From Tagaea sp. (GTDB taxonomy: Bacteria; Pseudomonadota; Alphaproteobacteria; CACIAM-22H2): 64,000 nt of DNA. A model generated the notes under the pieces. The model had not been told where the DNA came from and did not search any database. It worked only from the letters and a program-made list of their open reading frames with translations. Both the position numbers and the translations under genes were made by a program. The stretch spans positions 1,664,001 to 1,728,000 of the forward strand of contig CBDIIB010000005.1 of assembly GCA_965279525.1 (NCBI GenBank), read 5' to 3'. Position 1 is the stretch's first letter; every line of letters begins with the position of its first letter. This document shows, one piece after another, positions 11,589 through 64,000 of the stretch.

Positions 11589-11780
11589 TTGACTCCGCAT
11601 CCACCCGGATATAATCTCCGGTGGCTGGACGCGCTCTTTGACAAGTGAAGATTGACGACATGTGACGTTGAAAAATCCCGTCGCCTGTCAACAGGTCGCC
11701 GGATTTTCCATCGATGTCAGATGCTTGCCGTGTTGACGCAAAGTTTCGTCAACTTTACCGACAAGCATAAAATTCGGTAA
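11589..11780. ncRNA. Candidate structured non-coding RNA / cis-regulatory element
   Basis: TTGACT-15 nt-TATAAT (11589-11615), boxA-like GCTCTTTGACAA, two long hairpins (about 11656-11718 and 11721-11768). Confidence 0.45.
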
Positions 11781-11784
11781 TGGC

Positions 11785-13017: not shown

Positions 13018-13081
13018 TTTCCGTCGTGTATTTCGTGAATTCTGCGGGCCCGAGTCGCGGCGTGGGCGCCGGTCGGCAACT

Positions 13082-14287: not shown

Positions 14288-14405
14288 CGTCCGCCACGTT
14301 ATGCGAGCGGGAGACTCGCGGGCAAGCGATAGCCGGACCCCGATGAGGCGTTCGCGACTAATTCGCACTTGCGGCCCGTTCGGTTTCGGGCTAATTTCCG
14401 AAAAC

Positions 14406-14431
14406 GATATTGCAAGTCATTCTCAATTATC
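14406..14431 (+). promoter_or_regulatory. Fur/iron-responsive box
   Basis: GATATTGCAAGTCATTCTCAATTATC, core TTGCAAGTCATTCTCAA imperfect palindrome, 20-45 nt upstream of an Fe3+-binding protein gene. Confidence 0.75.
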
Positions 14432-14450
14432 AGTGTCCGAGGAGCCTCCC

Positions 14451-34178: not shown

Positions 34179-36068
34179 ATGGACGCGAAACCGGCTCCCG
34201 ACCTCGACCGCATGCGGCATTCGTGCTCGCACGTGCTCGCGGCCGCCGTACTGAAGCTCTTCCCCGACGCGAAGCTGGGCGTGGGCCCGGCGACCGACAC
34301 GGGCTTCTACTACGACATCGAGACGGCCGTGCCGCTGACGACCGAGGACCTGCCGAAGATCGAAGCCGAGATGCGCAAGATCCGCGAGCGCAAGCTGCCG
34401 CTCGTGCGCACCGAAGTGCCGATCGCCGACGCCGTCGCGTTCATGGAGAAGACGGGCCAGACCTACAAGGTCGAACTCCTCGGCCTGCTGGCCACGCGCG
34501 GCTCGACGGCCGCCAAGGGTCTCGAAGACCCCAACCTCGTCGAGGCGGGCGCTTCGGGCGTGACGAGCGTATCGTTCTATGCGCTCGGCGATTTCACCGA
34601 TCTCTGCCGCGGACCGCATGTGGAGCACACGGGCCAGGTGGGTGCGTTCAAGCTCACGAAGCTTGCCGGCGCCTATTGGCGCGGCGATTCGCGCAATCCG
34701 CAGCTCACGCGCGTCTACGGCACCTGCTGGGCCAACGAGCAGGACCTGAAGGCGTATCTCCACCGCGTGGAAGAAGCCGAGAAGCGCGACCATCGCAAGC
34801 TCGGCGCGGCGATGGGCCTGTTCCACCTTCAGGAGGAAGCGCCGGGCACGGTCTTCTGGCACCCGAAGGGCTGGACGCTGTTCCGCACGGTCGAGCGCTA
34901 CATGCGTTCGCGCCTGGAAGCCGACGGCTATGTCGAGGTCAAGACGCCCCAGCTGGTGGACCGCGTGTTCTGGGAGAAATCAGGCCACTGGGCCAACTAC
35001 CGCGACGCGATGTTCATCGCCCGGCCCGGCAAGGAAGGCGAGGAGGAAGACCGTCTCTACGCCATCAAGCCGATGAACTGCCCGGGGGCCGTGCAGATCT
35101 TCCGCGTGGGCCAGCGCAGCTATCGCGAGTTGCCGCTGCGCATGGCCGAGTTCGGTGCCTGCCACCGCTACGAGCCGTCGGGCGCCTTGCACGGCATCAT
35201 GCGCGTGCGCGCCTTCACGCAGGACGACGCGCACATCTTCTGCACCGAGGATCAGGTGCCGGCGGAATCGCAGAAATTCTGCGACCTGCTGCGCGTCATC
35301 TACAAGGATTTCGGCTTTGCCGATCTGGTCGTGAAATTCTCCGACCGGCCCGAGCAGCGCGCCGGATCGGACGAGACGTGGGACAAGGCGGAAACCGCAC
35401 TCGAAAAGGGCGCCGAGGCCGCCGGCCTCGCGACGGTGCGCAATCCGGGCGAGGGGGCGTTCTACGGCCCCAAGCTCGAATTCGTGCTGCGCGACGCCAT
35501 CGGGCGCGACTGGCAGTGCGGCACGCTGCAGGTCGATTTCGTGCTGCCCGAACGTCTCGACGCCGCCTATATCGGCGAGGACGGCAACAAGCATCGTCCG
35601 GTGATGCTGCATCGCGCGATCCTGGGATCGTTCGAGCGCTTCATCGGCATCCTGATCGAGAACTATGCCGGCCGCCTGCCGACCTGGCTGTCGCCGATCC
35701 AGGTCCGCATGGTGCCGATCGCCGACCGGCACGTCGATTTCGCGCGCGACGTGGCGCGTCGCCTGATGGGCTCGGAGTTGCCGCAGACCGACGGCGGCAT
35801 CCGCGTGGATGTCGACGACACGACCGAGCGCATGCAGAAGAAGATCCGCAACGCCCAGCTCGAGCAGATCCCCTACATGCTCGTCGTCGGCGACAAGGAA
35901 GCCGAGATGGGCAAGGTCGCGGTGCGTCTGCGCTCGGGGCGCGATCTCGGGACCATGGCGGTCGAGGACGTGGTCGCGCGCATCCGGGCGGAAGTCGCCA
36001 CGCGGGCCGACATCGTCGACCCGCCGGCACCCGTTCAGCAGGCGCCGAACCAGGCGAAAGCGCCGTAG
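34179..36068 (+). CDS. thrS: Threonine--tRNA ligase (no N-terminal TGS domain)
   Basis: RHSCSHVLA, DLCRGPHV, KRDHRKLG, KPMNCP, RVRAFTQDDAH, GAFYGPK, HRAILGSFERF; start at MDAKPAP. Confidence 0.97.
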   Translation: MDAKPAPDLDRMRHSCSHVLAAAVLKLFPDAKLGVGPATDTGFYYDIETAVPLTTEDLPKIEAEMRKIRERKLPLVRTEVPIADAVAFMEKTGQTYKVELLGLLATRGSTAAKGLEDPNLVEAGASGVTSVSFYALGDFTDLCRGPHVEHTGQVGAFKLTKLAGAYWRGDSRNPQLTRVYGTCWANEQDLKAYLHRVEEAEKRDHRKLGAAMGLFHLQEEAPGTVFWHPKGWTLFRTVERYMRSRLEADGYVEVKTPQLVDRVFWEKSGHWANYRDAMFIARPGKEGEEEDRLYAIKPMNCPGAVQIFRVGQRSYRELPLRMAEFGACHRYEPSGALHGIMRVRAFTQDDAHIFCTEDQVPAESQKFCDLLRVIYKDFGFADLVVKFSDRPEQRAGSDETWDKAETALEKGAEAAGLATVRNPGEGAFYGPKLEFVLRDAIGRDWQCGTLQVDFVLPERLDAAYIGEDGNKHRPVMLHRAILGSFERFIGILIENYAGRLPTWLSPIQVRMVPIADRHVDFARDVARRLMGSELPQTDGGIRVDVDDTTERMQKKIRNAQLEQIPYMLVVGDKEAEMGKVAVRLRSGRDLGTMAVEDVVARIRAEVATRADIVDPPAPVQQAPNQAKAP

Positions 36069-36229
36069 CACGCGTCGAACAGCCCGTTGAGGACCGCGAA
36101 CACGATCAGGTCCAGCACGAGCAGGGCGACGATCAGCGGCACGCCGACGCGCCACGCGAGCAGCGGGATCAGCCGCCATGTCGGCCGCGGGGCGGCGATG
36201 CGCTGTCCGTGCACGGGCTCGTCTTTCAT
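36035..36229 (-). CDS. Small hypothetical membrane protein (64 aa)
   Basis: ATGA-coupled to the upstream GNAT gene; hydrophobic VPLIVALLVLDLIVFAVL, CYG motif; 3' end overlaps thrS by 34 nt. Confidence 0.6.
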   Translation of the reverse strand: MKDEPVHGQRIAAPRPTWRLIPLLAWRVGVPLIVALLVLDLIVFAVLNGLFDACYGAFAWFGAC

Positions 36230-37131
36230 AGATAGGTTCCTGCAAGCGTGCGGGGGACTGCTCCGGTGCCGAGCTTGAAGCGCGCGAGGCCCGGGCTGCG
36301 GTCGGTGTCGATCGTGCCCAGATCCACCTTGCGCACGCCGGCTTCCTTCAGCGCCGTCAGCCCGCGCCACAGCACGAGATTGGCGGCATTGCGCTTGCGC
36401 CCTTCGTCGGTCGCGGCGGCGACGTAGTAGCTGGCATCCGGTCCGTGGCGCACGAAGAGCGCGCCCGCGACCGGCTCGTTACCATCCAGCGCCACGACGG
36501 CAAGCGTGGCGCGCGGCGATTTCAGGCCGGCGATCCGTGCCACGAAATCGCGCGACGGACCTTCGAAGCCCTTCGTCGCGTGCACGTCCTCGTAGCGTGC
36601 GACGACCCAGTCGATCCACTTGCCCTGCTGCGCCGTCTCGACACGAAGGCCCCCGCGCTCGGCGGCGGCAAGCCGGTTGCGCCATTTCTGGTGCAGCCCT
36701 GCACGCAAGGCGGCCTCGTCGCCGGCCGCAAGATCGAGGATCGCGCAGCTGTGGCCGGTATAGACGCGTGCACGCCCCAGCCAGCGCGCCGCGTTGGCCG
36801 GCGTCGCCGCGATCTCGGGGGCGATGAAGCTCAGACGCGCGATGCCGCGCGGGATCGCCGCCAGCAAAGCCGCGGCACCGGCATCGCCGGCGCCCAATGG
36901 AACCGGACCGCGTAGCGCCAGCCACAGCTCGGCGAAACCGAGCCAGCGCCGTCCGACAAGCTGGAGCGCTGCGCATACATTGTCAGGATCCGTCGCGAGC
37001 AGCCGCAACACGGGGCGACCCTGCCAGCGCACCGCGAGGCCATAGTCCCAGTCCTGCTGGAGCGGCCAGAAATCCGCCTGCCGTGCGGCGTTCTCCCAGG
37101 ACCGGCGATCGGGCTCGACAACGATCTGCAT
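36226..37131 (-). CDS. FemAB/FemX-like GNAT acyltransferase
   Basis: LQQDWDYG, LRGPV, LRAGLHQKWRNRL, ANLVLW, DLG....PGLARFKLGTG; AAGGA SD before MQIVVE. Confidence 0.85.
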   Translation of the reverse strand: MQIVVEPDRRSWENAARQADFWPLQQDWDYGLAVRWQGRPVLRLLATDPDNVCAALQLVGRRWLGFAELWLALRGPVPLGAGDAGAAALLAAIPRGIARLSFIAPEIAATPANAARWLGRARVYTGHSCAILDLAAGDEAALRAGLHQKWRNRLAAAERGGLRVETAQQGKWIDWVVARYEDVHATKGFEGPSRDFVARIAGLKSPRATLAVVALDGNEPVAGALFVRHGPDASYYVAAATDEGRKRNAANLVLWRGLTALKEAGVRKVDLGTIDTDRSPGLARFKLGTGAVPRTLAGTYL

Positions 37132-37177
37132 GCCGTTCCTTTTCGGACGCGGCCGGGACAAGGTCAAGCATAGAACA

Positions 37178-37226
37178 CGATAGTATGCTATCGAAGATCG
37201 CTATCGTTCCATTAATTGCACGTAAA
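37178..37226. promoter_or_regulatory. Operator-like palindrome plus CtrA-like box
   Basis: CGATAG-TATG-CTATCG (37178-37193), extra CTATCG at 37201, TTAA-N7-TAAA (37212-37226). Confidence 0.45.
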
Positions 37227-37276
37227 GATTTGGCCGCTAGGCTCGCCCGTGAGCTCGACAAGCGACGGAGCATGCC

Positions 37277-38269
37277 TTGGCCGAACCTGCGCACGACGAA
37301 GCCGGCGCCGACGCCCTGATGAAGGCGCCGCCGCGCACGGCCGTGGCCCCGCGCCGCTTCGAGTTCGTCCACAAGGTCTTCCAGGTCGAGAACGGCCTGT
37401 TCCAGCCCGATCCTTCGAGCGACGAACCGGTCTACAGCGTCGATCTGGGCGACTTGCGCGCCAACCTTTCCTTTCCCACGCTGCGCGTCTCGTTCGACAT
37501 CGACCCGGACAGCGCCGACTCCCGCCTGCTCGACGAGGTCGCCAAGGCGCTCACGTTCGTCAAGCGCATCCGGCCCGGCGACACGATCCCCAGCGAACTG
37601 CTCGACGGCTCGGCATCCTGGTCGGTCACGCCGCAGTTCCGCGCGATCGCCAAGGGCCGCGTGTGGGTCGGTCTCGTCGCGTGGCTGTCGGGCCAGCGCG
37701 GCGGGCGCGACATCAGCATGATCGAGCTTGCCAAGGTGTCGGAATCGAACGAGGCGAAAGACCACGTGAACATGGCTTTCGGCCGGCTCGCCGAGCATCT
37801 GGGCTACGGGGCCGCCAACAAGGAGATGGTCATCCGGAAGGTCGAGCGGCTGGTCGACGAGCTTTCCTACATCGAGGCGCTGCGCGAGCGCGTCGGGCGC
37901 GCGCGGCGCGTCGTCGAGATCGTCAAGCGGATGCGCAACACCTACAAGCGCGAGAAAAGCGTGCGCGAGGAGATCGAGCGCATCGTGCTGCTGATCGAAC
38001 GGCCGGTCGCCAAGCTCGAGGCGCAGATCACCGAAGTCGACGCCCAGGCCGGCGAGACGTCGAACGCGTTGCGCAACCTGCTGCAGCAGATCGGGTTCAT
38101 CCGCAAGACGCGCGACCGCCTGCATGCCGACCTGATGAAGTGGGACGACATCCTTGCGGCCTGGCAGGACATGGATGCCGAACCCTCGCCGCGCGCGCAA
38201 AAGCTCATCCGCAATACGTACCGCTTCGTCGCAAGATATTTTCCCGCCGAGTCCGAGTGGGTGCGTTGA
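37277..38269 (+). CDS. Protein of unknown function, paralogue 1 of 3
   Basis: 330 aa, TTG start with GGAG SD; colinear with 38373..39362 and 39464..40456 (HKVF, PVYSVDLGD, PSELLDGSASW, ELSYIEALRER, MKWD, YRFVARYFP). Confidence 0.9.
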   Translation: MAEPAHDEAGADALMKAPPRTAVAPRRFEFVHKVFQVENGLFQPDPSSDEPVYSVDLGDLRANLSFPTLRVSFDIDPDSADSRLLDEVAKALTFVKRIRPGDTIPSELLDGSASWSVTPQFRAIAKGRVWVGLVAWLSGQRGGRDISMIELAKVSESNEAKDHVNMAFGRLAEHLGYGAANKEMVIRKVERLVDELSYIEALRERVGRARRVVEIVKRMRNTYKREKSVREEIERIVLLIERPVAKLEAQITEVDAQAGETSNALRNLLQQIGFIRKTRDRLHADLMKWDDILAAWQDMDAEPSPRAQKLIRNTYRFVARYFPAESEWVR

Positions 38270-38297
38270 CGGTTTCGGGAAATCTTGCCGGCATTCG

Positions 38298-38312
38298 TTA
38301 ATCGCCCGGTAA
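38298..38312 (+). promoter_or_regulatory. CtrA-like box
   Basis: TTAA-TCGCCCG-GTAA, one mismatch to TTAA-N7-TTAA, in the spacer before paralogue 2. Confidence 0.4.
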
Positions 38313-38372
38313 GCTCTGCAGCTATAACGTGTTCACAGTCCGTTGGCCGACACCGGTCGATCGGAGGAACGC

Positions 38373-39362
38373 GTGACAGATACCCTGCCGAAAGCACCAC
38401 CTGCCGATCCGTTGAGCGAAGCCCCGCGCGAGGCGTCGCCGCCCCAGCGGTTCGATTTCGCGAACAAGGTCTTCCATGTCGAGAGCGGCGCCTTCCTGAT
38501 CGACGCCACGACCGACGAACCCGTCTATACCGTCGACCTGGGCGACGTGCGCGCCACGCTCACCTTCGCCACGCTGCGCTCGTCGTTCGGCATCGAGAAG
38601 GAACATCCGGACTCGAAACTGCTGGATGAGGTGAAGCGCGCACTTGTCTTCGTGCGCCGCGTGCGCAACGGGGATTCGATGCCGAGCGAGCTGCTCGACG
38701 GTTCGGCGTCGTGGAAGGTCGAAGAACGCCATCGCGTGGTCGCGCGCGGGCGCGTGTGGACCGGGCTCGTGGCGTGGATCTCGGGGGGCAAGTCGGCCGG
38801 CGGCGTCAGCATCGACGAATTCGCGACGATCGCAAACTCCGTCGAGACGCGCACGCGCGTGCAGGCCGCGTTCGGCCAGCTTGCCGACGCACTCGGCTAT
38901 CCGCCGGCGCGGCGCGGCGACGTCGTCGACCAGATCGAGCGGCTGATCGACGAGCTCTCGTTTCTCGAGGCGTTGCGCGAGCGCGTGGGATTGGCCCGGC
39001 GCATCGTCGAGACGCTGCGTGCCTACCGTGTCGCGCTCAAGCGCGAGAAGACCCTCGCCGAGGAGGTCGAGCGCACGATGCTGCTGGCCGAGCGCCCGGT
39101 CGTCGAGCACGAGAAACGGTTGGCGAAGATCGACGCGCAGTCCACGCATGTGCTCGAGATGCTGCGCCGGCTGGCGAATCAGATCGTCCTGATCCGCCAG
39201 ACGCGCGATGCGCTGCATGCCGGGATGATGAAGTGGGATCCGATGCTGGAGGCGTGGGCCGACGCCCCGCCGCAGCCCGGGCCGAACTGTCACCTGTTGA
39301 TCCGCGATACCTACCGGTTCGCGGCCCGGCACTTCCCGGTCCAGCAGGCTTGGAAACGCTGA
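38373..39362 (+). CDS. Protein of unknown function, paralogue 2 of 3 (most divergent)
   Basis: GTG start at 38373 with GGAGG SD; same motifs as paralogues 1 and 3. Confidence 0.9.
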   Translation: MTDTLPKAPPADPLSEAPREASPPQRFDFANKVFHVESGAFLIDATTDEPVYTVDLGDVRATLTFATLRSSFGIEKEHPDSKLLDEVKRALVFVRRVRNGDSMPSELLDGSASWKVEERHRVVARGRVWTGLVAWISGGKSAGGVSIDEFATIANSVETRTRVQAAFGQLADALGYPPARRGDVVDQIERLIDELSFLEALRERVGLARRIVETLRAYRVALKREKTLAEEVERTMLLAERPVVEHEKRLAKIDAQSTHVLEMLRRLANQIVLIRQTRDALHAGMMKWDPMLEAWADAPPQPGPNCHLLIRDTYRFAARHFPVQQAWKR

Positions 39363-39463
39363 TCCGGATGCCGGATTGGCGGTGGCGGCCATAGCAATGT
39401 AGGATGGAGACAATCTAGTGAAATCAGCCCGCCTCGACCGAACGTGCCCACGCGGAGTGCCGA

Positions 39464-40456
39464 TTGACCGAAGTCACGACACAGGCCGGCGAACCCGAAT
39501 CGCTGATGACCGAGGCGCCGCGCGTCGCGGCACCCGTGCGCCGGTTCGAATTCGCGCACAAGGTGTTTAGCGTCTCCGGTGGCTTGTTCCAGATCGATCC
39601 GCAGACCGACGACCCGGTCTACAGCGTCGATCTGGGCGACGTGCGTGCCAACCTCACCTTCGTGGCGCTGCGCGCGGCTTTCGGACTTGCACCCGACGAT
39701 CCGGATTCGAAGCTGCTGGACGAGGTCGGGCGCGGCCTTTCCTTCGTCAAGCGCATCCGGCCGGGCGACACGGTGCCAAGCGAACTGCTGGACGGGACGG
39801 CGTCGTGGACGGTCTCGGACCAGCATCGCGCGATCGCGCGCGGGCGGATCACCGTCGGTCTCATGGCGTGGATGTCGGGCAACCGCAGCACCCAGCAGAT
39901 GAGCATGCTCGAGCTTGCCAAGGTCGCCGAGGATCCGGAGACCAAGGGGCGCGTCCAGGCGGCATTCGCCAAGCTTGCCGACGAGCTGGGGCTGCCGCCC
40001 GACCGCAAGGCCGACGTGGTCGGCCAGATCGACAGGCTCGTCGACGAACTCACCTATATCGAGGCGCTGCGCGAGCGCGTGGCCAAGGCCCGCCGGATCG
40101 TCGAGGTCCTCAAGCGCCTGCGCGCGGTCTACAAGCGCGAACGCGGCGTGCACGACGAGATCGACCGCACGATCGCGTTGGCCGAGCCGCCGGTGGCCAA
40201 GCTCGAATCGCAGATCACCGAGGTCGACGGACAGACCGGCGAGACCGCCAACGCGCTGCGCACGCTGCCGCGCCAGATCGCGTTCATCCGCGAGACGCGC
40301 GACCGCCTGCATGCCCAGCTGATGAAGTGGGACGACATCCTGGTCGCCTGGAACGGCGTGGCCGCCGAGCGTTCGGGCACGGTCCAGCGGCTGGTGCGCG
40401 ACACCTACCGTTTCGTGGCACGCTATTTCCCGGCCGAGTCGGAGTGGGTCCGGTGA
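39464..40456 (+). CDS. Protein of unknown function, paralogue 3 of 3
   Basis: TTG start with GGAG SD; C-terminus TYRFVARYFPAESEWVR identical to paralogue 1. Confidence 0.9.
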   Translation: MTEVTTQAGEPESLMTEAPRVAAPVRRFEFAHKVFSVSGGLFQIDPQTDDPVYSVDLGDVRANLTFVALRAAFGLAPDDPDSKLLDEVGRGLSFVKRIRPGDTVPSELLDGTASWTVSDQHRAIARGRITVGLMAWMSGNRSTQQMSMLELAKVAEDPETKGRVQAAFAKLADELGLPPDRKADVVGQIDRLVDELTYIEALRERVAKARRIVEVLKRLRAVYKRERGVHDEIDRTIALAEPPVAKLESQITEVDGQTGETANALRTLPRQIAFIRETRDRLHAQLMKWDDILVAWNGVAAERSGTVQRLVRDTYRFVARYFPAESEWVR

Positions 40457-40478
40457 GCGGGGACGCGGGGGCGGGCAC

Positions 40479-41810
40479 GTGGCAGGCATAAAGCAGGTCG
40501 AGCGCAGGAAGCTGGGGCGCGAGGAGCTGTCAAAGCGCGTCGCCGCGCACGAACGCTTCTTGAAGAAGCAGTCCGGCGGCGTGCGCCTGCAGATCAATTT
40601 CTGCGTGGCGGCGCGCAACGACCTGCACGACCGCGACCTCGCCGAGGCCGAGCTCGTCGGCGCCGACCTGACCGAATGCGATTTCAGCCGCACGAACCTG
40701 TCGCGCGCCAACCTGTTCGGCGCGAACCTGACCCACGCGTGCCTGACCGACGCCAATCTCAGCCGCGTCGACCTGCGCGGGGCGGTGCTGAAGGGCGCCA
40801 ATCTCGAGGGCGCCGACCTCACGCGCGCGGACATCCGCGACGGGTTCCTGGTGACCGCCAACGAGAACGGCGAGTTCGACTACTCGGTCGTGCTGACGCA
40901 GAAATCGTCGATCGACGGCGCAAAGTTCGCCGGCGCCAATCTCGGCGAGGCGAAGCTGGGCCGGATCGTCGGCCAGTCGACCGATCTCACCAACTGCAAC
41001 CTGCGCGGCGCCAATCTCACCGGTGCGGACCTCTCGAACTCGAACCTGTCGGGCGTGGTGTTCACCGGCGCCGACCTTTCCGACGCGAACCTGTCGAACT
41101 GCAAGCTCAACGGCGCCGTGCTGGTCGGCGCCATCATGGCCGGCGCCAATCTCGACGGCGCCGACATGTGTGCGTGCCATTTCGTCATCGGCGACATGGA
41201 GAAGTGCGATCTTTCGCGCGCCGTCCTGCCGCGCACGCTCGCCGACATCGGCATGTCGTTCGGCGACATGGTCGTGGCGCACAACGACTGGCTGCGCACC
41301 GGCGGCGCGCAAGGTGCCCAGGTCACGATCGACGGCGTGGATCTGGGCCCCATCGAATGGCCCGGCGTGACGCTGTCGGCCGCCAGGCTCCAGCGCATCA
41401 CGCTCGTGGGCGCCAAGCTGCCGTCGGCGCGTTTCGACATGGCCAATCTCGAAGGCTCGATGCTCGCCGGCGTCGACATCTCGAACGGCTCGCTGCGCGG
41501 GGCCAATCTCGACAAGGCGGTGCTCGACGGCGCCAACATGCGCGACACCGATTTCTCGCCGCTGCCGCTGGCGGGCGTGGCCAACAGCAAATGGCCGGCG
41601 CGCGCCAAGGGCATCCGCGGGCACAAGACCGATTTCCGCGGCGCCAACCTGAAGGGCGTCGATTTCACCGAATCCTCGCTGCGCGACGCGGATTTCCGCG
41701 AAGCCGACCTCACGGGGGCACGGCTCGTCGATTGCGACCTGACGGGGGCCGACCTGCGCGAGGCGATCACGGCCGACGCGGACCTGCGCGGCGTTATCGG
41801 GATGAAGTGA
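40479..41810 (+). CDS. Pentapeptide repeat protein
   Basis: Long A(D/N)Lxx arrays (ANLFG ANLTH ACLTD ANLSR...); starts 22 nt after paralogue 3. Confidence 0.95.
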   Translation: MAGIKQVERRKLGREELSKRVAAHERFLKKQSGGVRLQINFCVAARNDLHDRDLAEAELVGADLTECDFSRTNLSRANLFGANLTHACLTDANLSRVDLRGAVLKGANLEGADLTRADIRDGFLVTANENGEFDYSVVLTQKSSIDGAKFAGANLGEAKLGRIVGQSTDLTNCNLRGANLTGADLSNSNLSGVVFTGADLSDANLSNCKLNGAVLVGAIMAGANLDGADMCACHFVIGDMEKCDLSRAVLPRTLADIGMSFGDMVVAHNDWLRTGGAQGAQVTIDGVDLGPIEWPGVTLSAARLQRITLVGAKLPSARFDMANLEGSMLAGVDISNGSLRGANLDKAVLDGANMRDTDFSPLPLAGVANSKWPARAKGIRGHKTDFRGANLKGVDFTESSLRDADFREADLTGARLVDCDLTGADLREAITADADLRGVIGMK

Positions 41811-41811
41811 C

Positions 41812-41840
41812 GGAAAAGACCCGCCGCGTCAGACGCGGCG
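41812..41840 (-). terminator. Hairpin between convergent genes, probable terminator of the RRM gene
   Basis: CGCCGCGT-CAG-ACGCGGCG stem, followed on the minus strand by GGTCTTTTCC. Confidence 0.5.
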
Positions 41841-42305
41841 CGGGGCGGGGCCGAGGCGGCGCTTTTCCACGGTGAAGCTGCGCGTGGCCGAAGTCGGCCG
41901 GCTGACGATCGGCTGGCTGAGGCCGAGCCGGTCGGCGTCGGGGCGCAGATGGGCCGGCAGCGGGCCGCCGTCCATCGGGCGCGTCGGGCGACGGCGTGCC
42001 GCCTTGGCGCGCGGCGGCTTCTTGGCCTTCACGTCGGCCAGGCGCACCTCGATCTTGCGCTCGCCCACGGTCGACCCGTCGAGGGCGGCGATGGCCGCCT
42101 TGCAGTGCGCCTCGGTCGCCATCGTCACGAAGGCATAGCCGATCGCCTTGCCGGTCGCGGGATCGGTCGGCACCTGGGCCTGGATCACGATGCCGTGCGC
42201 GTCGAACAGGTCGGCGAGCTTCTCGGCATCGATCCCGAACGGCACGTTGCCCACGAACAGGCGCGTGTTGTAGCTCTTGGCGGGTGTGGCGGCGGTCTTC
42301 GGCAT
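41829..42305 (-). CDS. RRM (RNP-1) RNA-binding protein
   Basis: RNP2 LFVGNV, RNP1 IGYAFVTM, AIAALDG, KIEVRLA; basic tail; start at MPKTAA. Confidence 0.9.
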   Translation of the reverse strand: MPKTAATPAKSYNTRLFVGNVPFGIDAEKLADLFDAHGIVIQAQVPTDPATGKAIGYAFVTMATEAHCKAAIAALDGSTVGERKIEVRLADVKAKKPPRAKAARRRPTRPMDGGPLPAHLRPDADRLGLSQPIVSRPTSATRSFTVEKRRLGPAPRRV

Positions 42306-42464
42306 CTGGTCTGTCCCCGGAGGGCGGCGGACGCGTTGGCCCGGCACCCAAGTTAGCAGTCTGATCCTTTCGCTTCCCCGCGACTCGCGGGAAACGCTCG
42401 TCCCTGATCTGCTATTCCCGCATGGCGCGGGACGCCGACTTGGACTTGCAAAACGCTCACCAGA
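42306..42464 (-). promoter_or_regulatory. Candidate structured 5' leader of the RRM gene
   Basis: Nested complementary segments CCAAGT/ACTTGG, TAGCAG/CTGCTA, two GC-rich hairpins, TCTGGT/ACCAGA closing at the start codon. Confidence 0.45.
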
Positions 42465-42571
42465 CACATCCTCGTTGCAAACTGCGGCAATAGGATGACA
42501 GCGATTGGGGCTTGAAGGGACCGGCCCGCCGGGCTTAGTTTCGGGCCTTCAGACTCCGGACGGATCGAGAA

Positions 42572-42973
42572 TTGTTCAAGAAATTCCGCGCATTGGTCGT
42601 CGACGACGACGGCACGACACGGCTCATGCTCCGCAACATGCTCGAAGCGCTCGAGTTCATGGCGGTCGAGACGGCCGCAGGCGCCGAGGGCGCCAAGCTC
42701 GCTTTCCAGACGTCGCCCGACCAGTGGCCGGACGTTTTGCTGTGCGATGTCAACATGAAGCCGACCAGCGGGCTCGAACTGGTCGCGTGGATGAAGTCGC
42801 AGCCCAAGATCGTCGCGCACAACGTGCCCGTCGTGATGGTAACCGCGCACTCCGACGCGCCGATCGTGCGCCGGGCGATGGAGCTTGGCGTCTCGGGATA
42901 CCTGATCAAGCCGGTGCAGCCGCTCGCCCTGCGCGTGCGGATGGAAAAAGCGCTGCTGCCGCGCGCGTTCTAG
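42572..42973 (+). CDS. Single-domain CheY-like response regulator
   Basis: LVVDDD, LLCDVNMKP.SG, MVTA, YLIKP; TTG start. Confidence 0.9.
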   Translation: MFKKFRALVVDDDGTTRLMLRNMLEALEFMAVETAAGAEGAKLAFQTSPDQWPDVLLCDVNMKPTSGLELVAWMKSQPKIVAHNVPVVMVTAHSDAPIVRRAMELGVSGYLIKPVQPLALRVRMEKALLPRAF

Positions 42974-58052: not shown

Positions 58053-59018
58053 ATGCGTCTTTACCGCGATCCGGCCGGCATTCCCGCCGATGCGAAGGGT
58101 GCCTACGCCGCCATCGGCAATTTCGACGGCGTGCATCGCGGCCATCAGGCCGTGATCGGCGAGGCGATCCGCCTTGCGCGCGCGGCCGGCCGCAAGTCGG
58201 CCGTCATCACGTTCGAGCCGCATCCGCGCCGCGTGTTCAAGCCCGACCTGCCGCCGTTCCTGCTGACCAGTGCGCGCATGAAGATCGCCACGCTGCGCGA
58301 TCTGGGTGTCGATCTGTGTTTTGCACTCCGCTTCGACCGGCAGCTTGCGGGCCTGACAGCCGAGGAATTCGTCGCGCGCGTGCTGGTCGGCTCGCTCGGC
58401 CTCGAAGGTATCGTCGCCGGCTACGATTTCGTCTTCGGCAAGGGTCGTGGCGGCAGTCCGGAAACACTGGTCGCCGAGATGCGCAAGGCCGGGCGGGTCG
58501 CGAAGATCGTGGCCCCCGCACTCGACGCGGCGGCCGCCGGGTCGGCGGCTGGCGAGAGCGATCCGGAAGCGTTCGTCTATTCGTCGACCGGCGTGCGCGA
58601 CGCGCTCAAAGCGGGCGATCCGCGCGCCGCCGCGCGCATCCTCGGCCGGCCCTTCGCGATCGAAGGGCGCGTGCGTCACGGCGACGCGCGCGGCCGCACG
58701 ATCGGTTTTCCGACCGCGAACCTGGCGCTGGGCCCCTATCTGCCACCGGCCTTCGGCGTCTATGCGGTGCGCGTGGACGGTGCCGTCGCCGGTCGTACGC
58801 TGGGCGGTGTCGCCAATCTCGGCGTACGCCCGACGGTGGGCGGGGATCCCGCACCCCGCCTCGAGGTCCATCTGTTCGACTTCGCGGGCGATCTTTACGG
58901 GCGACGGCTGACGGTCTCGCTGATCGAGTTCCTGCGTCCCGAACGCAAGTTCGACGGCCTCGATGCGCTCAAGGCCCAGATCGCCGCCGACGCTTCGGCT
59001 GCGCGAAAGCTGGTCTAG
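58053..59018 (+). CDS. ribF: Bifunctional riboflavin kinase / FAD synthetase
   Basis: IGNFDGVHRGHQ, TFEPHP, GRTIGFPTAN, GVRPT, LEVHLFDF, RPERKF. Confidence 0.97.
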   Translation: MRLYRDPAGIPADAKGAYAAIGNFDGVHRGHQAVIGEAIRLARAAGRKSAVITFEPHPRRVFKPDLPPFLLTSARMKIATLRDLGVDLCFALRFDRQLAGLTAEEFVARVLVGSLGLEGIVAGYDFVFGKGRGGSPETLVAEMRKAGRVAKIVAPALDAAAAGSAAGESDPEAFVYSSTGVRDALKAGDPRAAARILGRPFAIEGRVRHGDARGRTIGFPTANLALGPYLPPAFGVYAVRVDGAVAGRTLGGVANLGVRPTVGGDPAPRLEVHLFDFAGDLYGRRLTVSLIEFLRPERKFDGLDALKAQIAADASAARKLV

Positions 59019-60145
59019 CGCGCCGGCGGGCGTGGTGCCTGGCCTGCTTCGGCGGCCATTTCGGCGCGGCCCTGCGGCGTCAGGCGCTTCTTCAGGTTCA
59101 TCACGTAGCTGATGACTTCGGCGACCGCCTTGTAGTGCTCGGGCGGGATTTCCTCGTCGATGTCGACGCTGGCGTAGAGGGCACGCGCCAGCGGGCGGTT
59201 CTCGACGATCGGCACTTCGTGCTCGGTCGCGATCTCGCGGATCTTGAGGGCCGTGAGGTCCACGCCCTTGCCCACGCACACCGGGGCCGCCGTCTTCTCG
59301 TCGTAGCGCAGCGCCACGGCATAGTGGGTCGGGTTCGTTACCACGACGGTCGCCTTGGGGATCGCGGTCATCATGCGCCGGCGCGCGCGTTCCATGCGCA
59401 GCTGCTTGATGCGCCCCTTGACGACCGGGTCGCCTTCCGACTGCTTGTACTCGTCCTTGATCTCCTGCTTGGACATGCGCAGGCGCTTGTAATGCTGGAA
59501 GCGCTGGTAGAGATAGTCGAGCCCGGCGATCAGCGTCATCACCGAGATGACGGCGACCATCACCTTCATCGCCAGCGTGAGCATCACGCGGCCGATATCC
59601 GGCAGGTCGAGTTCGACAAACCGCGCGAGATCGTCGGCTTCGCCCTTCAGCGTGTACCAGCAGACCGTGCCGACGATCGTGATCTTGATGAGGCCTTTCA
59701 GGAACTCGAAGACGGAGTTGAACGAGAACAGCCGCTTGAAGCCGCTCGTCGGCGAGATCTTGCTGAATTTCGGGATCAGCGGCTGGGCCGAGACGATGAA
59801 GCCGTTCTGCAGGACCTGGGCGGCGACGGCGGCCACCATCAGCACCGCGAAGAACGGCAGCATGGCGACAAGCGGCGACATGAGCGCGAAGGCGATGATC
59901 TGCTGGAGACCGCCGCCCTCGAAGGTGAATTCGTGCGGGCGCTCGAAGAAGGGGACCATGGCGCCGGTCAGTCCGCGCCACATGTGGGTGCCGAGAAACG
60001 TGAAGCCGAGCGTGGCGCCCATGAACATCATCCAGTGATTGAGCTCGCGCGTGGCCGCGACCTGGCCTTTCTCGCGCGCATCGTCCAGCCGTTTGCCGGT
60101 TGGCTCTTCTGTTTTGGAGGACTCGTCTTGGGCTTCTTCGGCCAT
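59015..60145 (-). CDS. flhB: Flagellar export protein FlhB
   Basis: KTEEPT.KRL.DAREKGQV, KQSEGDP, autocleavage NPTH. Confidence 0.97.
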   Translation of the reverse strand: MAEEAQDESSKTEEPTGKRLDDAREKGQVAATRELNHWMMFMGATLGFTFLGTHMWRGLTGAMVPFFERPHEFTFEGGGLQQIIAFALMSPLVAMLPFFAVLMVAAVAAQVLQNGFIVSAQPLIPKFSKISPTSGFKRLFSFNSVFEFLKGLIKITIVGTVCWYTLKGEADDLARFVELDLPDIGRVMLTLAMKVMVAVISVMTLIAGLDYLYQRFQHYKRLRMSKQEIKDEYKQSEGDPVVKGRIKQLRMERARRRMMTAIPKATVVVTNPTHYAVALRYDEKTAAPVCVGKGVDLTALKIREIATEHEVPIVENRPLARALYASVDIDEEIPPEHYKAVAEVISYVMNLKKRLTPQGRAEMAAEAGQAPRPPAR

Positions 60146-60155
60146 GTCAGGACCT

Positions 60156-60938
60156 TCAGGGACCGAGGAGCAGGGGTTCGAGCTTGTCCATGAAGCCGCG
60201 CTCGAAGGCGCGCATGGCCGCCGCCGTGGTCAGGGCGAGGGCCGCCATGCCGATGGCGATCTGGGCCGGCTGGGCGATGAAGAACACCTGGATCGCGGGC
60301 TGCAGGCGCGCGATCAGCCCCATCGCGAGGTTGATGACCAGGCCGAAGACGAGGAAGGGGGCCGAGATCTGCACGCCGAGCGCGAAGCTGTGCGCGGTCC
60401 ATGTCGTCAGCGCCTTGGCGAAATCGCCAAGCGGCGGGAGCTGGCCGGGCGGGAACAGCCGGTAGGAATCCGCGATCGCGTGCAGCAGCAGGTGATGCAT
60501 GTTCGTCACGAACAGGAACGCGATGGCGATCGCCACGAGCCAGGCGGAGATCGCCGCACCCTGCTGGCCGAAGCCCGGATCGAAGAGCGTTGCCGCCGCA
60601 AGGCCGGTCTGCTGGGCGATGATGGCGCCGGCGACGACGAGTGCGGAGATGGCGAAGCGGCCGGCGAGCCCGATGAAGGCGCCGACCAGCGTTTCGCCCA
60701 GCAGGATGCCGGTCATCGAGATGACGGATTCGGGAAGCGGCGGGATCGACGGGCCGACCAGCGGCGTGAGGACGAGACAGATCGCCAGCGCCAGACCCAG
60801 CCGCATGCGCGCCGGGATGGCGAGTTCGCCCAGGCCCGGCATGCCGAGCATCGCAGCGCTTATCCGCACGAAGACGGCGAAATAGACGAAGACCTCGGCG
60901 GGCAGGGCGCGCGTCAGTTCGCCGACGATCAGGTTCAC
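60156..60938 (-). CDS. fliR: Flagellar export protein FliR
   Basis: Polytopic membrane protein, AGAIIAQQTGL, GLIARLQPAIQVFF; between fliQ and flhB. Confidence 0.93.
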   Translation of the reverse strand: MNLIVGELTRALPAEVFVYFAVFVRISAAMLGMPGLGELAIPARMRLGLALAICLVLTPLVGPSIPPLPESVISMTGILLGETLVGAFIGLAGRFAISALVVAGAIIAQQTGLAAATLFDPGFGQQGAAISAWLVAIAIAFLFVTNMHHLLLHAIADSYRLFPPGQLPPLGDFAKALTTWTAHSFALGVQISAPFLVFGLVINLAMGLIARLQPAIQVFFIAQPAQIAIGMAALALTTAAAMRAFERGFMDKLEPLLLGP

Positions 60939-61216
60939 GAGCTGCCGCCGATCCCGATGCCGACGGCCTTGGCCATCAGCTCGCGCGTGAATTCGATCAG
61001 CGTCGTGGACATGAACGGGATCGTCAGCACGAAGACGGCGAACAGCACCAGGATCTTCGGCACGAAGGTCAGGGTCTGTTCCTGGATCTGCGTCAGCGCC
61101 TGGATGAGGCTGATGACGAGGCCGACGACCAGCGCCACGAGCATCAGGGGAGCCGAGATCTTGAGCATCACCCAGATCGCCTCGCGCGACACTTCCAGCA
61201 CGTCGGTGGCGTTCAT
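60935..61216 (-). CDS. fliQ: Flagellar export protein FliQ
   Basis: VGLVISLIQALTQIQEQTLTFVPKI. Confidence 0.96.
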   Translation of the reverse strand: MNATDVLEVSREAIWVMLKISAPLMLVALVVGLVISLIQALTQIQEQTLTFVPKILVLFAVFVLTIPFMSTTLIEFTRELMAKAVGIGIGGSS

Positions 61217-61254
61217 GGGCGTTCCCGATAGGCTAGGGCGATCCGACGCTGCCG

Positions 61255-61575
61255 TCAGATCGGCATGCGGATGATTTCCTGGTAGGCCTGCACGACGCGG
61301 TCGCGCACGGCGATGGTCGCCTGCAGCGTGACCTCGGCGGCCGATACCGCCTGCACGACCTGGCCCACGTCGGCCTTGCCGGCAAGGGCGCGAAGGCTGG
61401 CCTGCTCGCCCGCCTTCAGCGACTGCATCGTGTTCTGGGCGGCCTGCGCCAGGATCGAGCCGAAATCGGCGTTGCCGGGTGCCGACTCGTCGGCGCCGGC
61501 GGCCGAACCGGGTTTGGAGATGCGTGCCGCACCCTGATAGGCGGCGGCGGCGAGCGAGGGCGAGGTGATTGCCAT
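61255..61575 (-). CDS. fliE: Flagellar hook-basal body protein FliE
   Basis: AVRDRVVQAYQEIIRMPI C-terminus. Confidence 0.95.
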   Translation of the reverse strand: MAITSPSLAAAAYQGAARISKPGSAAGADESAPGNADFGSILAQAAQNTMQSLKAGEQASLRALAGKADVGQVVQAVSAAEVTLQATIAVRDRVVQAYQEIIRMPI

Positions 61576-61598
61576 TTAAGGGGTCCCTTCGGCGGCGA

Positions 61599-62009
61599 TC
61601 AGCCGCGCAGGATGTCGATCGTGCGGGAGATCATGCTCTTCGACGTCTCGATGACGTTGATGTTGGCTTCGTAGGAACGCTGCGCCTGGCGCATGTCCAT
61701 CGCCTCGATCAGGTTGTTGACGTTCGGGGCAAGCACATAGCCCTCGGCGTCGGCGGCGGGATGCGAGGGCTCGTAGCGGCGCGCGAAGGAGGTCTTGTCG
61801 GTGCCGATGCCGGAGGTGCGCACCGTCTGGGTGCCGATCTGGCGGTCGAGGATGTTGCGGAAGCTGATCGTCTTGCGCCGGTAGGGATCCGCACCCGGCG
61901 TCTCGCCGAGCGAGTCGGCGTTGGCGATGTTTTCGGCGATCACGCGCATGCGGGTCGACTGGGCGGCCATGCCGGCTGCCGAGACGCGCATCGATTTCTG
62001 GAGGTCCAT
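61599..62009 (-). CDS. flgC: Flagellar basal-body rod protein FlgC
   Basis: AENIANADS, DPYRRK, YEPSHPAAD..GYV..PNVN, AQRSYEAN. Confidence 0.97.
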   Translation of the reverse strand: MDLQKSMRVSAAGMAAQSTRMRVIAENIANADSLGETPGADPYRRKTISFRNILDRQIGTQTVRTSGIGTDKTSFARRYEPSHPAADAEGYVLAPNVNNLIEAMDMRQAQRSYEANINVIETSKSMISRTIDILRG

Positions 62010-62022
62010 CGCTATTCCCCGT

Positions 62023-62424
62023 CTACGAGTTGCGGCCGATCGCCGAGCGCAGCATGGCGAGCTGCCGGCGATAGATGTTGGTGGTCATCTGGTAGTCCAT
62101 CGCCGTGTCGGCGACCTTCATGAGTTCCGTGTCGAGCTGGACCGAGTTGCCCGACAGCGTCGTCTCGCTCGGGCGCGGCTTGTCTTCGCGGTCCGGGCCG
62201 GCGATCTGGCGGCTGGTCAAATGCTGCGTCGCCGTCGTCGTCGCGGTCAGGCGCGAGGTCTGCTTGCGCATCTCGGCGCGGAAATCGATGGCCTTCAGGT
62301 CGCGCGGCTGGAAGTTCGGCGTGTCGGCGTTCGAGACGTTGTGCGACAGCACCGTCTGGCGGTGGCTGAGCCAGTCCATCCGACGTGCGATCATCCCGAA
62401 GAGGGGCAGACGCGTAATATCCAT
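62023..62424 (-). CDS. flgB: Flagellar basal-body rod protein FlgB
   Basis: RQTVLSHNVSNADTPNFQPRDL, SGNSVQLDTE. Confidence 0.96.
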   Translation of the reverse strand: MDITRLPLFGMIARRMDWLSHRQTVLSHNVSNADTPNFQPRDLKAIDFRAEMRKQTSRLTATTTATQHLTSRQIAGPDREDKPRPSETTLSGNSVQLDTELMKVADTAMDYQMTTNIYRRQLAMLRSAIGRNS

Positions 62425-62446
62425 GACCTTACTCTAGTGGCCGAAA

Positions 62447-62463
62447 GGTTAATAATCGGTAAA
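62447..62463 (-). promoter_or_regulatory. CtrA box upstream of flgB
   Basis: Minus strand TTTA-CCGATTA-TTAACC, one mismatch to TTAA-N7-TTAAC, in the AT-rich divergent flagellar promoter region. Confidence 0.6.
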
Positions 62464-62672
62464 TTATCTATAATTTTAGAGAATTTGAAAAGCATTTAAT
62501 TCACGCCAAGATTCAATATCTTGTTTGGCGAATCGGAGTCTCGAGTCGAGACTGATTTTCGGGCTAATTGCTGGAAACTACAAACAAAACTCACTTTTAA
62601 TAAAGTTTTAGCTGGTTTGGGGTAGTCCTGTGATCGTCAGTCCTTCCGCGAACCTGTCGAAAGCCGTTTCCC

Positions 62673-63005
62673 TTGGCCCGTCGTCCACCCCGACCGCCGC
62701 GTGCCCCGCTCGATCCGAACATGAAGCGGGCGATCGCCCTCGAGTACGCGCGCGAAAGCGATCCTGCACCGCGCGTCACGGCGAAGGGCGAGGGGCTGCT
62801 TGCCGACAAGATCGTCGAGATCGCGCGCGCACACGGCGTGACGGTGCGCGAGGACCGCGACCTGGTGATGCTGCTGGGAGCGGTCGACATCGACAGCCCG
62901 ATCCCGGTCGAAGCCTTCCAGGCGGTCGCCGAGATCCTCTCCTACATCTATCGAAAGCAGGGCCGCCTCGCCGCCGGCAAGGCCGCACCGGAGACCAAGC
63001 CATGA
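62673..63005 (+). CDS. Stand-alone FlhB C-terminal-like (EscU/YscU/HrcU family) protein
   Basis: AIALEY....APRVTAKGEG..ADKIVEIA..HGV.VRED, IPVEAFQAVAEILSYIY; start may be ATG 62721. Confidence 0.88.
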   Translation: MARRPPRPPRAPLDPNMKRAIALEYARESDPAPRVTAKGEGLLADKIVEIARAHGVTVREDRDLVMLLGAVDIDSPIPVEAFQAVAEILSYIYRKQGRLAAGKAAPETKP

Positions 63006-63295
63006 GGGCGGTCGAAGTCCTGCAGGCCATCGTCGACGTGACGCGCGAGATCGACGAGGCGCGTGCCGCCCTCCATCGCGGACAGGACGTGGCGCTCGAC
63101 GGGCTCGACGGGCGCGTGCGCGACCTTTGCCTGTCCACGACCGAGCTTCCGCGCGCCGAAGGGATCGCGTGCGCGGGCGCGCTCGACGGCGTGCACCAGG
63201 CCCTCGAACGGCTGCGCGGCACGCTTGCCGTTTCCGCCCGGCTTGCCGGTCCGGCCGCCCGCGTTCCGCAGGGCCACACGGGCTATCCGCGATGA
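63002..63295 (+). CDS. Hypothetical helical protein in the flagellar operon
   Basis: ATGA-coupled at both ends; VALDGLDGRVRDLC. Confidence 0.65.
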   Translation: MRAVEVLQAIVDVTREIDEARAALHRGQDVALDGLDGRVRDLCLSTTELPRAEGIACAGALDGVHQALERLRGTLAVSARLAGPAARVPQGHTGYPR

Positions 63296-63582
63296 TGATG
63301 GAACCCGAAAGCCTGCTGCGTTTCGCGGCCGCCCTTGCCTTCGTCGTGGCGCTGATCGCCGCGATCGCGTGGCTCGCGCGCCGCTGGATGCCGGGCGGCG
63401 TGGCGGTCTCGGCCAGCAAGCGCCGGCGCCTCCAGATCGTCGAGACGCTCGCCCTCGATCCCAAGACGCGCGCGATGCTGGTACGGCGCGACGAGGTCGA
63501 GCATCTCCTCGTCGTCGGTCCGCACGGTACGACGCATGTCGAGCGCGTCGAGCCGTCGCGCGCGACGTCGGAGCCGGCCTGA
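63292..63582 (+). CDS. fliO: Flagellar protein FliO
   Basis: One TM then RRLQIVETLALDPKTRAMLVRRDEVEHLLVVG; directly before fliP. Confidence 0.88.
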   Translation: MMMEPESLLRFAAALAFVVALIAAIAWLARRWMPGGVAVSASKRRRLQIVETLALDPKTRAMLVRRDEVEHLLVVGPHGTTHVERVEPSRATSEPA

Positions 63583-64000
63583 TGCGCTTGCTGAAGGCCG
63601 CTTGCGTCTTCCTGCTGGTGCTGGCGCCGCTGCCGGCGCTGGCGCAGAGCTTCAATCTCGACCTGGGCGACGGCAGTTCCACCACGGGCCGCATCATCCA
63701 GCTGATGCTGCTGATGACGGTGCTGACGCTCGCACCCTCCATCCTGATGATGGTGACGAGCTTCGTGCGCATCGCCGTCGTGCTGTCGCTGCTGCGCACC
63801 GCACTGGGCACCCAGCAGGCGCCGCCCAACGCGGTGCTGACGTCGCTGGCGCTGTTCCTGACGTTCTTCATCATGGCGCCGGTCGGCGAGGTCGCATGGC
63901 GCGACGGCATCTCGCCGCTGATCGACGGGCGCATCACCGAAGTCCAGGCAATCGAGCGGTCGGCGAAGCCCTTCCACGAATTCATGATCGTGCACACGCG
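63582..64000 (+). CDS. fliP: Flagellar export protein FliP (partial, runs off window)
   Basis: Hand-translated: signal peptide, TVLTLAPSILMMVTSFVRIAVVLSLLRTALGTQQAPPNAVLTSLALFLTFFIMAP. Confidence 0.96.
   Translation, partial: MRLLKAACVFLLVLAPLPALAQSFNLDLGDGSSTTGRIIQLMLLMTVLTLAPSILMMVTSFVRIAVVLSLLRTALGTQQAPPNAVLTSLALFLTFFIMAPVGEVAWRDGISPLIDGRITEVQAIERSAKPFHEFMIVHT

Follow-up and report, generated by a model that had tools for sequence, protein, structure and literature searches.

Two proteins encoded on chromids of Azospirillum, WP_014249612.1 of A. lipoferum 4B and WP_012977186.1 of Azospirillum sp. B510, are the nearest described relatives of the gene array considered here, and RefSeq gives the four Azospirillum members of this family whose records were opened the product name 'hypothetical protein'. 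The pentapeptide-repeat proteins Qnr and MfpA, by comparison, are DNA mimics that protect gyrase. The two kinds of protein meet in a stretch of 64,000 nucleotides from Tagaea sp. (contig CBDIIB010000005.1, positions 1,664,001 to 1,728,000), hereafter the window, in which three tandem paralogous genes, copies 1 to 3 (c1-c3), precede a gene for a pentapeptide-repeat protein (PRP). The Azospirillum proteins are 38-41% identical to c3 over 93-94% of its sequence, and have the same length and the same single domain architecture. The original prediction, made from the DNA alone, had taken the four Tagaea genes as a candidate new system. Our results place nothing known close to this protein family or its fold, and as regards a system they support a lineage-specific operon only.

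All four genes lie on the plus strand and were taken from the list of open reading frames (ORFs). c1 (37277-38269, 330 residues) opens at a TTG that follows GGAG. The longest ORF of c2 (38343-39362, plus strand, 339 residues) also has a TTG start; the GTG at 38373, which yields 329 residues (38373-39362), is the likelier initiation codon because a GGAGGA Shine-Dalgarno sequence precedes it and the match to the family profile begins there. The TTG start of c3 (39464-40456, 330 residues) is kept in the alignment in 9/9 loci, and the PRP gene (40479-41810, 443 residues, identified by Pfam) begins with GTG. The three paralogues are 51-62% identical overall (c1 against c2, 51%; c1 against c3, 62%), and each reaches 438-477 bits against the family profile, far beyond chance. 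The maximal 19-residue Kyte-Doolittle mean does not exceed 0.99 for c1-c3 and is 1.27 for the PRP, so no membrane segment is expected in any of them. On these points the original prediction was accurate: ORF list, profile scores and hydropathy agree on three intact, tandem, soluble proteins of about 330 residues beside a pentapeptide gene, the TTG and GTG starts are as it gave them, the gap between c3 and the PRP gene is 22 nt (40457-40478), and the motifs it listed (HKVF/NKVF, PVY.VDLGD, LLDEV, PSELLDG.ASW, EL..EALRERV, MKWD and TYRF.AR.FP...W.R) are all present in the paralogue alignment. The identical ends of c1 and c3, which it had also noticed, extend over the last 17 residues. The codons there differ at many synonymous sites, which argues for selection at the protein level and rules out recent gene conversion as the source of the shared ends.

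No recognisable domain had been seen in these proteins, and database searches bear this out. Profile searches with c1-c3 covered Pfam, NCBIfam, PADLOC and PHROGs, and none of these libraries returned a significant or above-cut-off match; structure searches with Foldseek covered PDB and BFVD. The top sub-threshold matches had E-values of 0.0099 in Pfam (15.5 bits, cut-off 28.3), 0.0012 in NCBIfam (17.6 bits, cut-off 300), 0.0022 in PADLOC and 0.012 in PHROGs, and the sub-threshold matches, to SMC, Rad50, LmuB and dynamin-helical models with E-values of roughly 0.001-0.1, lie over the long helices. When 56 family members were scanned singly against Pfam, any one Pfam family matched at most eight of them (87 families in all). 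Three JGI records (P0062, P0065 and P0072) label family members ParE; ParE is not among the 25 most-matched Pfam families in the 56-member scan, which took in P0065 and P0072. The DUF2326 label of one NCBI record (P0275) was rejected, as P0275 has no DUF2326 match in Pfam at E<=1. A literature search on four family accessions or locus tags found no mention of them, and the mentions of DUF2326 concern unrelated work. Fused forms were absent among proteins of 624-2000 residues, which is weak evidence.

The fold is predicted with confidence and appears to lack a solved counterpart. An AlphaFold2 model of c3 from a 56-sequence alignment (pLDDT 86.8, pTM 0.84) comprises an alpha/beta domain of about 115 residues (residues ~25-140, with strands at 41-44, 51-57 and 60-65) and a bundle of long helices (residues 148-321, including helices 179-222 and 227-259), in agreement with the N-terminal alpha/beta part and C-terminal helical bundle that the first reading of the translations had suggested. 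The N-domain modelled separately gave a pLDDT of 88.6 and a pTM of 0.71. Foldseek returned no PDB match to the whole protein at E<=1e-3 (best E 0.15, and no TM score above 0.25 in the 50 best matches listed), no BFVD match to the whole protein at that threshold, and none in PDB for the N-domain. The ESM Atlas gave a top score of 0.81 with no usable lead, and named none usable for the N-domain. Conservation is concentrated at a limited set of residues. The 24 columns that are invariant in the 56-sequence alignment are all retained by c1, c2 and c3. In a set of 182 members made non-redundant at 60% identity, conservation is highest at R279, P105, E107, W115, D81, F42, W289, S114, R276 and E200, and the near-invariant polar residues are D81, D102, E107, S114, H121, E195, E200, R203, R276, R279 and D280.

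The family is large. It comprises 630 clusters at 50% identity (E<=1e-3), 314 of them at E<=1e-30; most of 150 listed representatives have about 300-390 residues, and at least 561 of 590 candidate stretches (one genome per species) encode a relative. From the best 80 of these at least 561 stretches, 78 loci were fetched (L001-L078), giving 79 with the window. By order, 45 of the 78 belong to Rhodospirillales, 11 to Sneathiellales, two to Acetobacterales, and one each to Burkholderiales and Hyphomicrobiales, and 18 carry no order. Most loci hold a single copy, as a chromosomal or chromid gene, and the family tree tracks taxonomy; the family is vertically inherited and widespread. No homologue was found in 50,697 phage records, and the plasmid collection yielded only five matches, to large Azospirillum replicons (648-883 kb), of which three have smc at the family locus. 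Three contigs from metagenome-assembled genomes (MAGs) labelled Hydrogenophaga, Rhizobium and Asaia (L037, L043 and L044) carry family genes that nest in Niveispirillum-like or Tagaea-like clades, for which mis-binning or mislabelling is a more likely explanation than gene transfer.

CtrA-type boxes stand upstream of the family gene in several lineages and offer the best clue to its function. A passage of PMC7200025 gives the CtrA box consensus as TTAA-N7-TTAAC, and according to a passage of PMC8116508 flagellar genes are under CtrA control in every order studied; in one of these, Rhodospirillales, growth does not require CtrA, and swarming and encystment are affected by it. The literature consensus was scanned with up to one mismatch unless stated otherwise, the motif being tested after the window's own site had been seen. 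A box occurs in 15/60 intergenic regions upstream of family genes, as against 5/375 other promoter-bearing regions (odds ratio 24.7, Fisher p 2e-10); counted by sequence cluster, the figures are 8/21 at 60% identity (p 1.7e-10) and 5/11 at 50% (p 1.8e-7). The half-sites are kept while the spacers vary between lineages. Not one of 150 letter-permuted motifs reaches 15 (mean 2.2); their highest count, 10, was obtained with the true motif shifted by one base. Of the five 'other' regions with a box, two hold exact boxes before an EAL-like gene that itself precedes the family gene (L047 and L064).

The window holds three sites at one mismatch or fewer, with 0.31 expected, and 1/100 shuffles reaches three. 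One of them, TTACCGGGCGATTAAC (38297-38312, minus strand, one mismatch), lies between c1 and c2 and precedes the c2 start by 61 nt; the other two (62448-62463 and 62597-62612, one mismatch each) fall in the flagellar flgB/fliP promoter. When two mismatches are allowed, 13/17 window sites are confined to three regions, namely upstream of c1, upstream of c2 and the flagellar promoter. Those upstream of c1 include three overlapping CtrA-like boxes with two mismatches each (37200-37227) in the 109-nt divergent intergenic region between c1 and a GNAT/FemAB-like gene. Their core, TTAATTGCACGTAAAGA, is conserved in 7/8 aligned Tagaea-clade loci, L008 being the one that differs, and the site has only one mismatch in L004, L005 and L007. 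The flagellar cluster itself (59018-64000) combines minus-strand genes (flhB, fliR, fliQ, fliE, flgC and flgB) with fliP on the plus strand, and has an AT-rich divergent promoter (62425-62629) between the flgB-flgC-fliE-fliQ-fliR-flhB operon and the fliP-containing operon. Such boxes upstream of family genes lend indirect support to a cell-cycle role, which the original prediction had offered as a side guess.

The tandem array with its PRP gene is limited to one Tagaea subclade, namely 10/79 loci (the window and L001-L009). These ten share a block in which a SpoU-like gene, thrS and the minus-strand GNAT/FemAB-like gene precede the array and the PRP gene, and a minus-strand RRM gene, a response regulator and a TRAP transporter follow. 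Three copies, all intact, occur in the window and in L002-L005; a further three-copy locus seems to be split between L001 and L010, which come from the same MAG. L006-L008 have two copies, namely c2 and c3, and keep the PRP gene; a fixed three-part stoichiometry is thus not required. L009 is cut by the contig end, and L014 holds one copy and fragments. In L011-L013, which belong to more distant Tagaea, the flanks are unchanged, two copies are present and the position of the PRP gene is taken by a gene for a hybrid histidine kinase; the kinase carries a receiver domain and lies downstream of the two-copy array, for example at 8794-11286 of L011, and also in L012 and L013. An unlinked family paralogue (L074 and L078) is present in some of the same MAGs.

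Phylogeny and substitution rates indicate that the copies have been retained. A maximum-likelihood (ML) tree of 46 rows was built under LG+G4, with support given as ultrafast bootstrap/SH-aLRT. It recovers the whole array clade (25 rows, 100/98), the c1 orthologues (six rows, 100/100), the c2 orthologues (nine rows, 100/99) and c1 and c2 as sisters (15 rows, 96/93), with c3 basal and unresolved. The pairs of L011-L013 group apart from the others (seven rows, 97/96), which points to an independent duplication or to concerted evolution. The orthologue clades of c1, c2 and c3 predate the species splits. When each window gene was compared with its orthologues by the NG86 method, the ratio of nonsynonymous to synonymous substitution (dN/dS) was 0.18-0.36 for c1, 0.26-0.44 for c2, 0.10-0.44 for c3 and 0.10-0.27 for the PRP; c1-c3 and the PRP are under purifying selection. 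c2 evolves fastest, its dN being roughly double the values for c1 and c3; c3 is the slowest. Thirteen positions are conserved within the paralogue groups and different between them, and at such group-specific sites c3 departs from the family consensus twice, c1 six times and c2 five times. All c1 orthologues have Phe in place of His121, a residue found in 99% of the other family rows. Judged from these residues, c3 is the most ancestral-like copy, and c1 and c2 have diverged. The separate orthologue clades, a dN/dS of at most 0.44 and the 24 invariant positions kept in every copy together imply that the copies are retained and mildly specialised, not decaying.

The pentapeptide-repeat gene is unambiguous as to its class. 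Pfam Pentapeptide (PF00805) matches it at E 2.3e-71 in eight stretches, and Pentapeptide_4 and Pentapeptide_3 also exceed their cut-offs. Its top NCBIfam matches are Alr5209 and HetL-type repeats, for which we know of no gyrase role. The scores against Qnr (91.1 bits, cut-off 240) and MfpA (74.4 bits, cut-off 360) fall far short of the curated thresholds, which speaks against the gyrase or DNA mimicry once considered for this protein; it is not an orthologue of either. Its orthologues in nine other loci are 83-96% identical, and it starts 5-39 nt after the last family gene in 10/10 loci with downstream sequence. The supposed partnership between paralogues and PRP thus stands in a restricted form: in this lineage c3 and the PRP gene look co-transcribed. 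It does not extend to the family, since a PRP-like ORF within about 8 kb occurs in only 10/79 loci, all of the one Tagaea subclade, and sister Tagaea loci carry the hybrid histidine kinase. In the remaining 69 the retrieved flanks, of up to 8 kb on each side, contain no such ORF, and 63 of them have at least 1.5 kb of downstream sequence. Relatives elsewhere without a pentapeptide gene beside them are one of the outcomes that the original prediction itself had named as refuting it.

No terminator-like site was found between the four plus-strand genes, and a G+C-rich hairpin directly after the PRP stop codon (41822-41840), overlapping the end of the convergent RRM gene, is likely the terminator that closes the unit. 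In the c2-c3 spacer a promoter-like element, TTGGCG-N18-TAGGAT (39376-39405, plus strand), has a TTGGCG that is invariant in 9/9 array-clade loci, and we infer that it may be an internal promoter for c3 and the PRP gene; a sigma-70 consensus scan of 36000-42700 called no promoter, this element included. The c1-c2 spacer measures 103 nt in the window, and c1 and c2 abut or overlap in L002-L005. Rfam, run across the whole window, gives one tRNA only, hence no riboswitch in the conserved leaders. The GNAT-c1 intergenic region also contains a palindrome, CGATAGTATGCTATCG (37178-37193), inside a block, CACGATnGTATGCTATC, conserved in 7/8 aligned loci; the palindrome could serve the divergent promoters as an operator.

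The explanation that we favour, at a little better than even confidence, is that these proteins form a soluble, non-enzymatic binding or scaffold family that underwent a lineage-specific tandem expansion in Tagaea and is co-expressed with the CtrA regulon in several lineages. As predicted from the boxes, the family gene would be switched on together with the CtrA regulon in the box-bearing lineages, a regulon that in Rhodospirillales governs flagellar motility and development. The product would act as a non-enzymatic binding or scaffold protein, with D81, E107, S114, E195, E200, R203, R276 and R279 forming a putative binding surface between the two domains. In one Tagaea subclade the gene has been duplicated at a fixed housekeeping locus (thrS, GNAT, array, PRP, RRM), where the paralogues may have split or extended the family role, possibly as hetero-oligomers, and c3 and the PRP gene would be co-transcribed from the internal promoter. 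Several observations weigh against this explanation. A box within 2.2 kb upstream of the family gene was found in 0/12 Azospirillum loci (those with the DAO-type neighbour) and 0/14 Sneathiella loci (those with trmFO), so that CtrA control, if real, is not family-wide. An exact box directly upstream of the family gene occurs in 0/60 regions, the c1 site in the window has two mismatches, and the test was partly post hoc, the motif having been chosen once the window site had been seen. The neighbour statistics describe the closer part of the family, coming as they do from the best 80 of at least 561 stretches. Finally, 'non-enzymatic' has as its sole ground the lack of a recognisable catalytic constellation, and D102, H121 and D280 could form an active site.

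That last point leads to a different proposal, in which the protein would be catalytic, for instance a metal-dependent hydrolase or transferase, with an active site of invariant acidic, His and Arg residues at the domain interface and paralogues that differ in substrate. The eleven near-invariant polar residues listed above fit it, as do the neighbours in some clades: M17 and M1 peptidases, a peptide-type ABC ATPase, and the FemAB-like transferase by thrS. We nevertheless regard it as rather unlikely, for no enzyme family or fold was matched, the neighbours change from clade to clade, and all c1 orthologues replace H121 with Phe yet stay under purifying selection. Comparably improbable is the idea nearest to the original prediction, in which the three paralogues would build a hetero-oligomeric machine with the PRP as a dedicated system, for instance in topoisomerase or nucleoid control. 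The tight spacing of c3 and the PRP gene in 10/10 array-clade loci, the high conservation of the PRP in sequence and dN/dS, the lack of a terminator-like site between the array genes and the PRP gene, and the upkeep of each paralogue as its own orthologue group across species are all what such a machine would predict; however, adjacency in a single subclade can be inherited synteny, 69/79 loci lack a PRP-like ORF in their flanks and L011-L013 have the hybrid histidine kinase instead, and the scores of the PRP fall well short of the cut-offs for Qnr and MfpA. An extension of our favoured explanation would make the family a new component, with an unsolved fold, of a CtrA-controlled motility, polarity or developmental programme in Rhodospirillales-type Alphaproteobacteria, and the Tagaea array a hetero-oligomer of three specialised subunits that recruits a dedicated PRP; it too is doubtful.

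The other explanations carry much less weight. Defence had been named among the possible roles, and the array might be an anti-phage, toxin-antitoxin or other mobile accessory module; the helical region's weak PADLOC matches (LmuB and PbeC, E 0.002-0.07), the ParE label on three JGI records and a locus, L044, in which family copies stand beside a Cas9 gene could be cited in its favour. The LmuB and PbeC matches are coiled-coil noise, far from significance, and the ParE label is not reproduced by the 25 Pfam families that the members matched most often. PADLOC has no match for the PRP, no mobile genes lie nearby, and the array sits in stable synteny by thrS and the TRAP transporter at a housekeeping locus. 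With a family tree that follows taxonomy, no homologue in the phage records and only the five large Azospirillum replicons in the plasmid collection, we consider such a role very unlikely. Simple duplication in decay, with extra copies lacking a retained function, had been named as what might overturn the original prediction, and the doubled rate of c2 and the fragments of one copy in L014 are what it would lead one to expect; it is just as improbable, given that all three genes are intact in the window and in L002-L005, form orthologue clades older than the species splits, show dN/dS of at most 0.44 and keep the 24 invariant positions. What was said of the retention of three copies therefore holds, each being its own orthologue clade across genomes at dN/dS 0.10-0.44. 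Tripartite ClyA-type alpha-pore-forming toxins such as AhlABC, Hbl and Nhe consist of three tandem helical paralogues of about 330-400 residues. The likeness to three tandem paralogues with long helical bundles is plain, and one weak Atlas lead points the same way (a cluster with 13% Bacillus_HBL members, score 0.79). Even so, a toxin of this type is the least credible reading of all: Foldseek found no PDB match at E<=1e-3, there is no hydrophobic head or tongue (maximal 19-residue mean at most 0.99), the translations show no signal-peptide-like N-terminal stretch, and most genomes are single-copy.

The significance of the locus lies in the family and its fold, and not in a demonstrated multi-gene system. 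No model for the family exists in Pfam, NCBIfam, PADLOC or PHROGs, though it is present in Azospirillum, Nitrospirillum, Skermanella, Sneathiella, Tagaea and relatives, and its confidently predicted fold is without a solved counterpart. If the CtrA link is true, the family would be a tractable new candidate in an ancestral alphaproteobacterial motility and cell-cycle circuit, testable in cultivable plant-associated bacteria such as Nitrospirillum; if the link fails, what is left is a conserved hypothetical protein that has expanded in one lineage, which is nothing unusual. In either case the Tagaea array may serve as a natural experiment in subfunctionalisation, with one ancestral-like copy and two diverged ones, c1 having lost a His that is 99% conserved.

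The neighbourhoods of the family gene were also surveyed beyond Tagaea for a conserved operon partner of the whole family, a candidate that was rejected: neighbours are stable within clades and different between clades, and none is universal. Upstream of the family gene lie trmFO in Sneathiella (14 loci), a DAO-type oxidoreductase gene in Azospirillum (15 loci), a gene for an EAL-like protein of about 440 residues in Nitrospirillum, Niveispirillum and relatives (14 loci), and an M17 aminopeptidase gene in five loci, to which two loci with M17 downstream may be added; an M1 aminopeptidase gene is divergent from the family gene in three loci of Skermanella and Arenibaculum. The M17 enzyme (leucyl aminopeptidase) adjoins the family gene in L018, L019, L021, L023, L031, L074 and L078, the last two of which also have a peptide-type ABC ATPase nearby, and M1 (PepN) does so in L015, L017 and L020. 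The occurrence of aminopeptidase neighbours in separate clades could reflect shared neighbourhood ancestry or be a functional hint. The protein of about 440 residues is a weak or degenerate EAL protein (for example at 6334-7656 of L024), and the window has a homologue of it at 11788-13107 on the minus strand, 24 kb from the array. In L044, a MAG labelled Asaia bogorensis, a Cas9-type gene (11358-14588; HNH_4, RuvC_III and Cas9_a) follows two non-adjacent family copies at a short distance, a single short ORF intervening.

Two further genes flank the array in Tagaea. The GNAT/FemAB-like gene (36226-37167, minus strand; Acetyltransf_6, E 2e-13, with a weak FemAB match) is divergent from the array and stands next to thrS (34.1-36.07 kb, plus strand). 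This GNAT-thrS-array arrangement is found in 12/15 Tagaea-clade loci (L002-L005, L007, L008, L010-L014 and the window) and is absent from L006; the GNAT/FemAB-like product could be an aminoacyl-tRNA-dependent transferase. On the other side, the RRM_1 RNA-binding gene (41829-42467, minus strand) encodes 212 residues with the RRM at residues 70-139 and extensions on both sides, and is the convergent neighbour of the PRP or histidine kinase gene in 14/15 Tagaea-clade loci. Inside it, at 41998-42090, ARAGORN calls a 'tRNA-???' with a four-base anticodon; the call is without Rfam support and is probably a false positive.

The Azospirillum chromid genes are unlike the Tagaea array in being single-copy and in lying between a gene for an FAD oxidoreductase and smc, with no PRP neighbour (in Azospirillum sp. 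B510 two extra genes separate the family gene from smc), and the 12 loci of the Azospirillum clade that were scanned, the chromid loci not among them, have no CtrA-type box. The PRP resembles Qnr and MfpA in its pentapeptide repeats and differs from them in size, with 443 residues as against NCBIfam models of 211 (Qnr) and 183 (MfpA) positions, and in scores below their cut-offs. The top PDB sequence-profile match of the family is to the cytoplasmic helical hairpin of methyl-accepting chemotaxis proteins (MCPs; 2ch7 and 3ja6), at E 0.0018 over family residues 151-281. MCP residues 175-303 form one continuous helix, and in the alignment these roughly 130 consecutive residues correspond to three or more distinct helices of the family model; homology to MCPs was rejected, the match being judged to reflect coiled-coil composition (11.9 bits of composition bias, with no Pfam or Foldseek support). 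The family is unlike the products of the CtrA regulon in showing no similarity to any flagellar, chemotaxis or cell-cycle protein. What it may have in common with the flagellar class II operons of that regulon are the TTAA-N7-TTAAC-like boxes upstream of its genes in several lineages, as they occur before c2 and before flgB and fliP of the same window.

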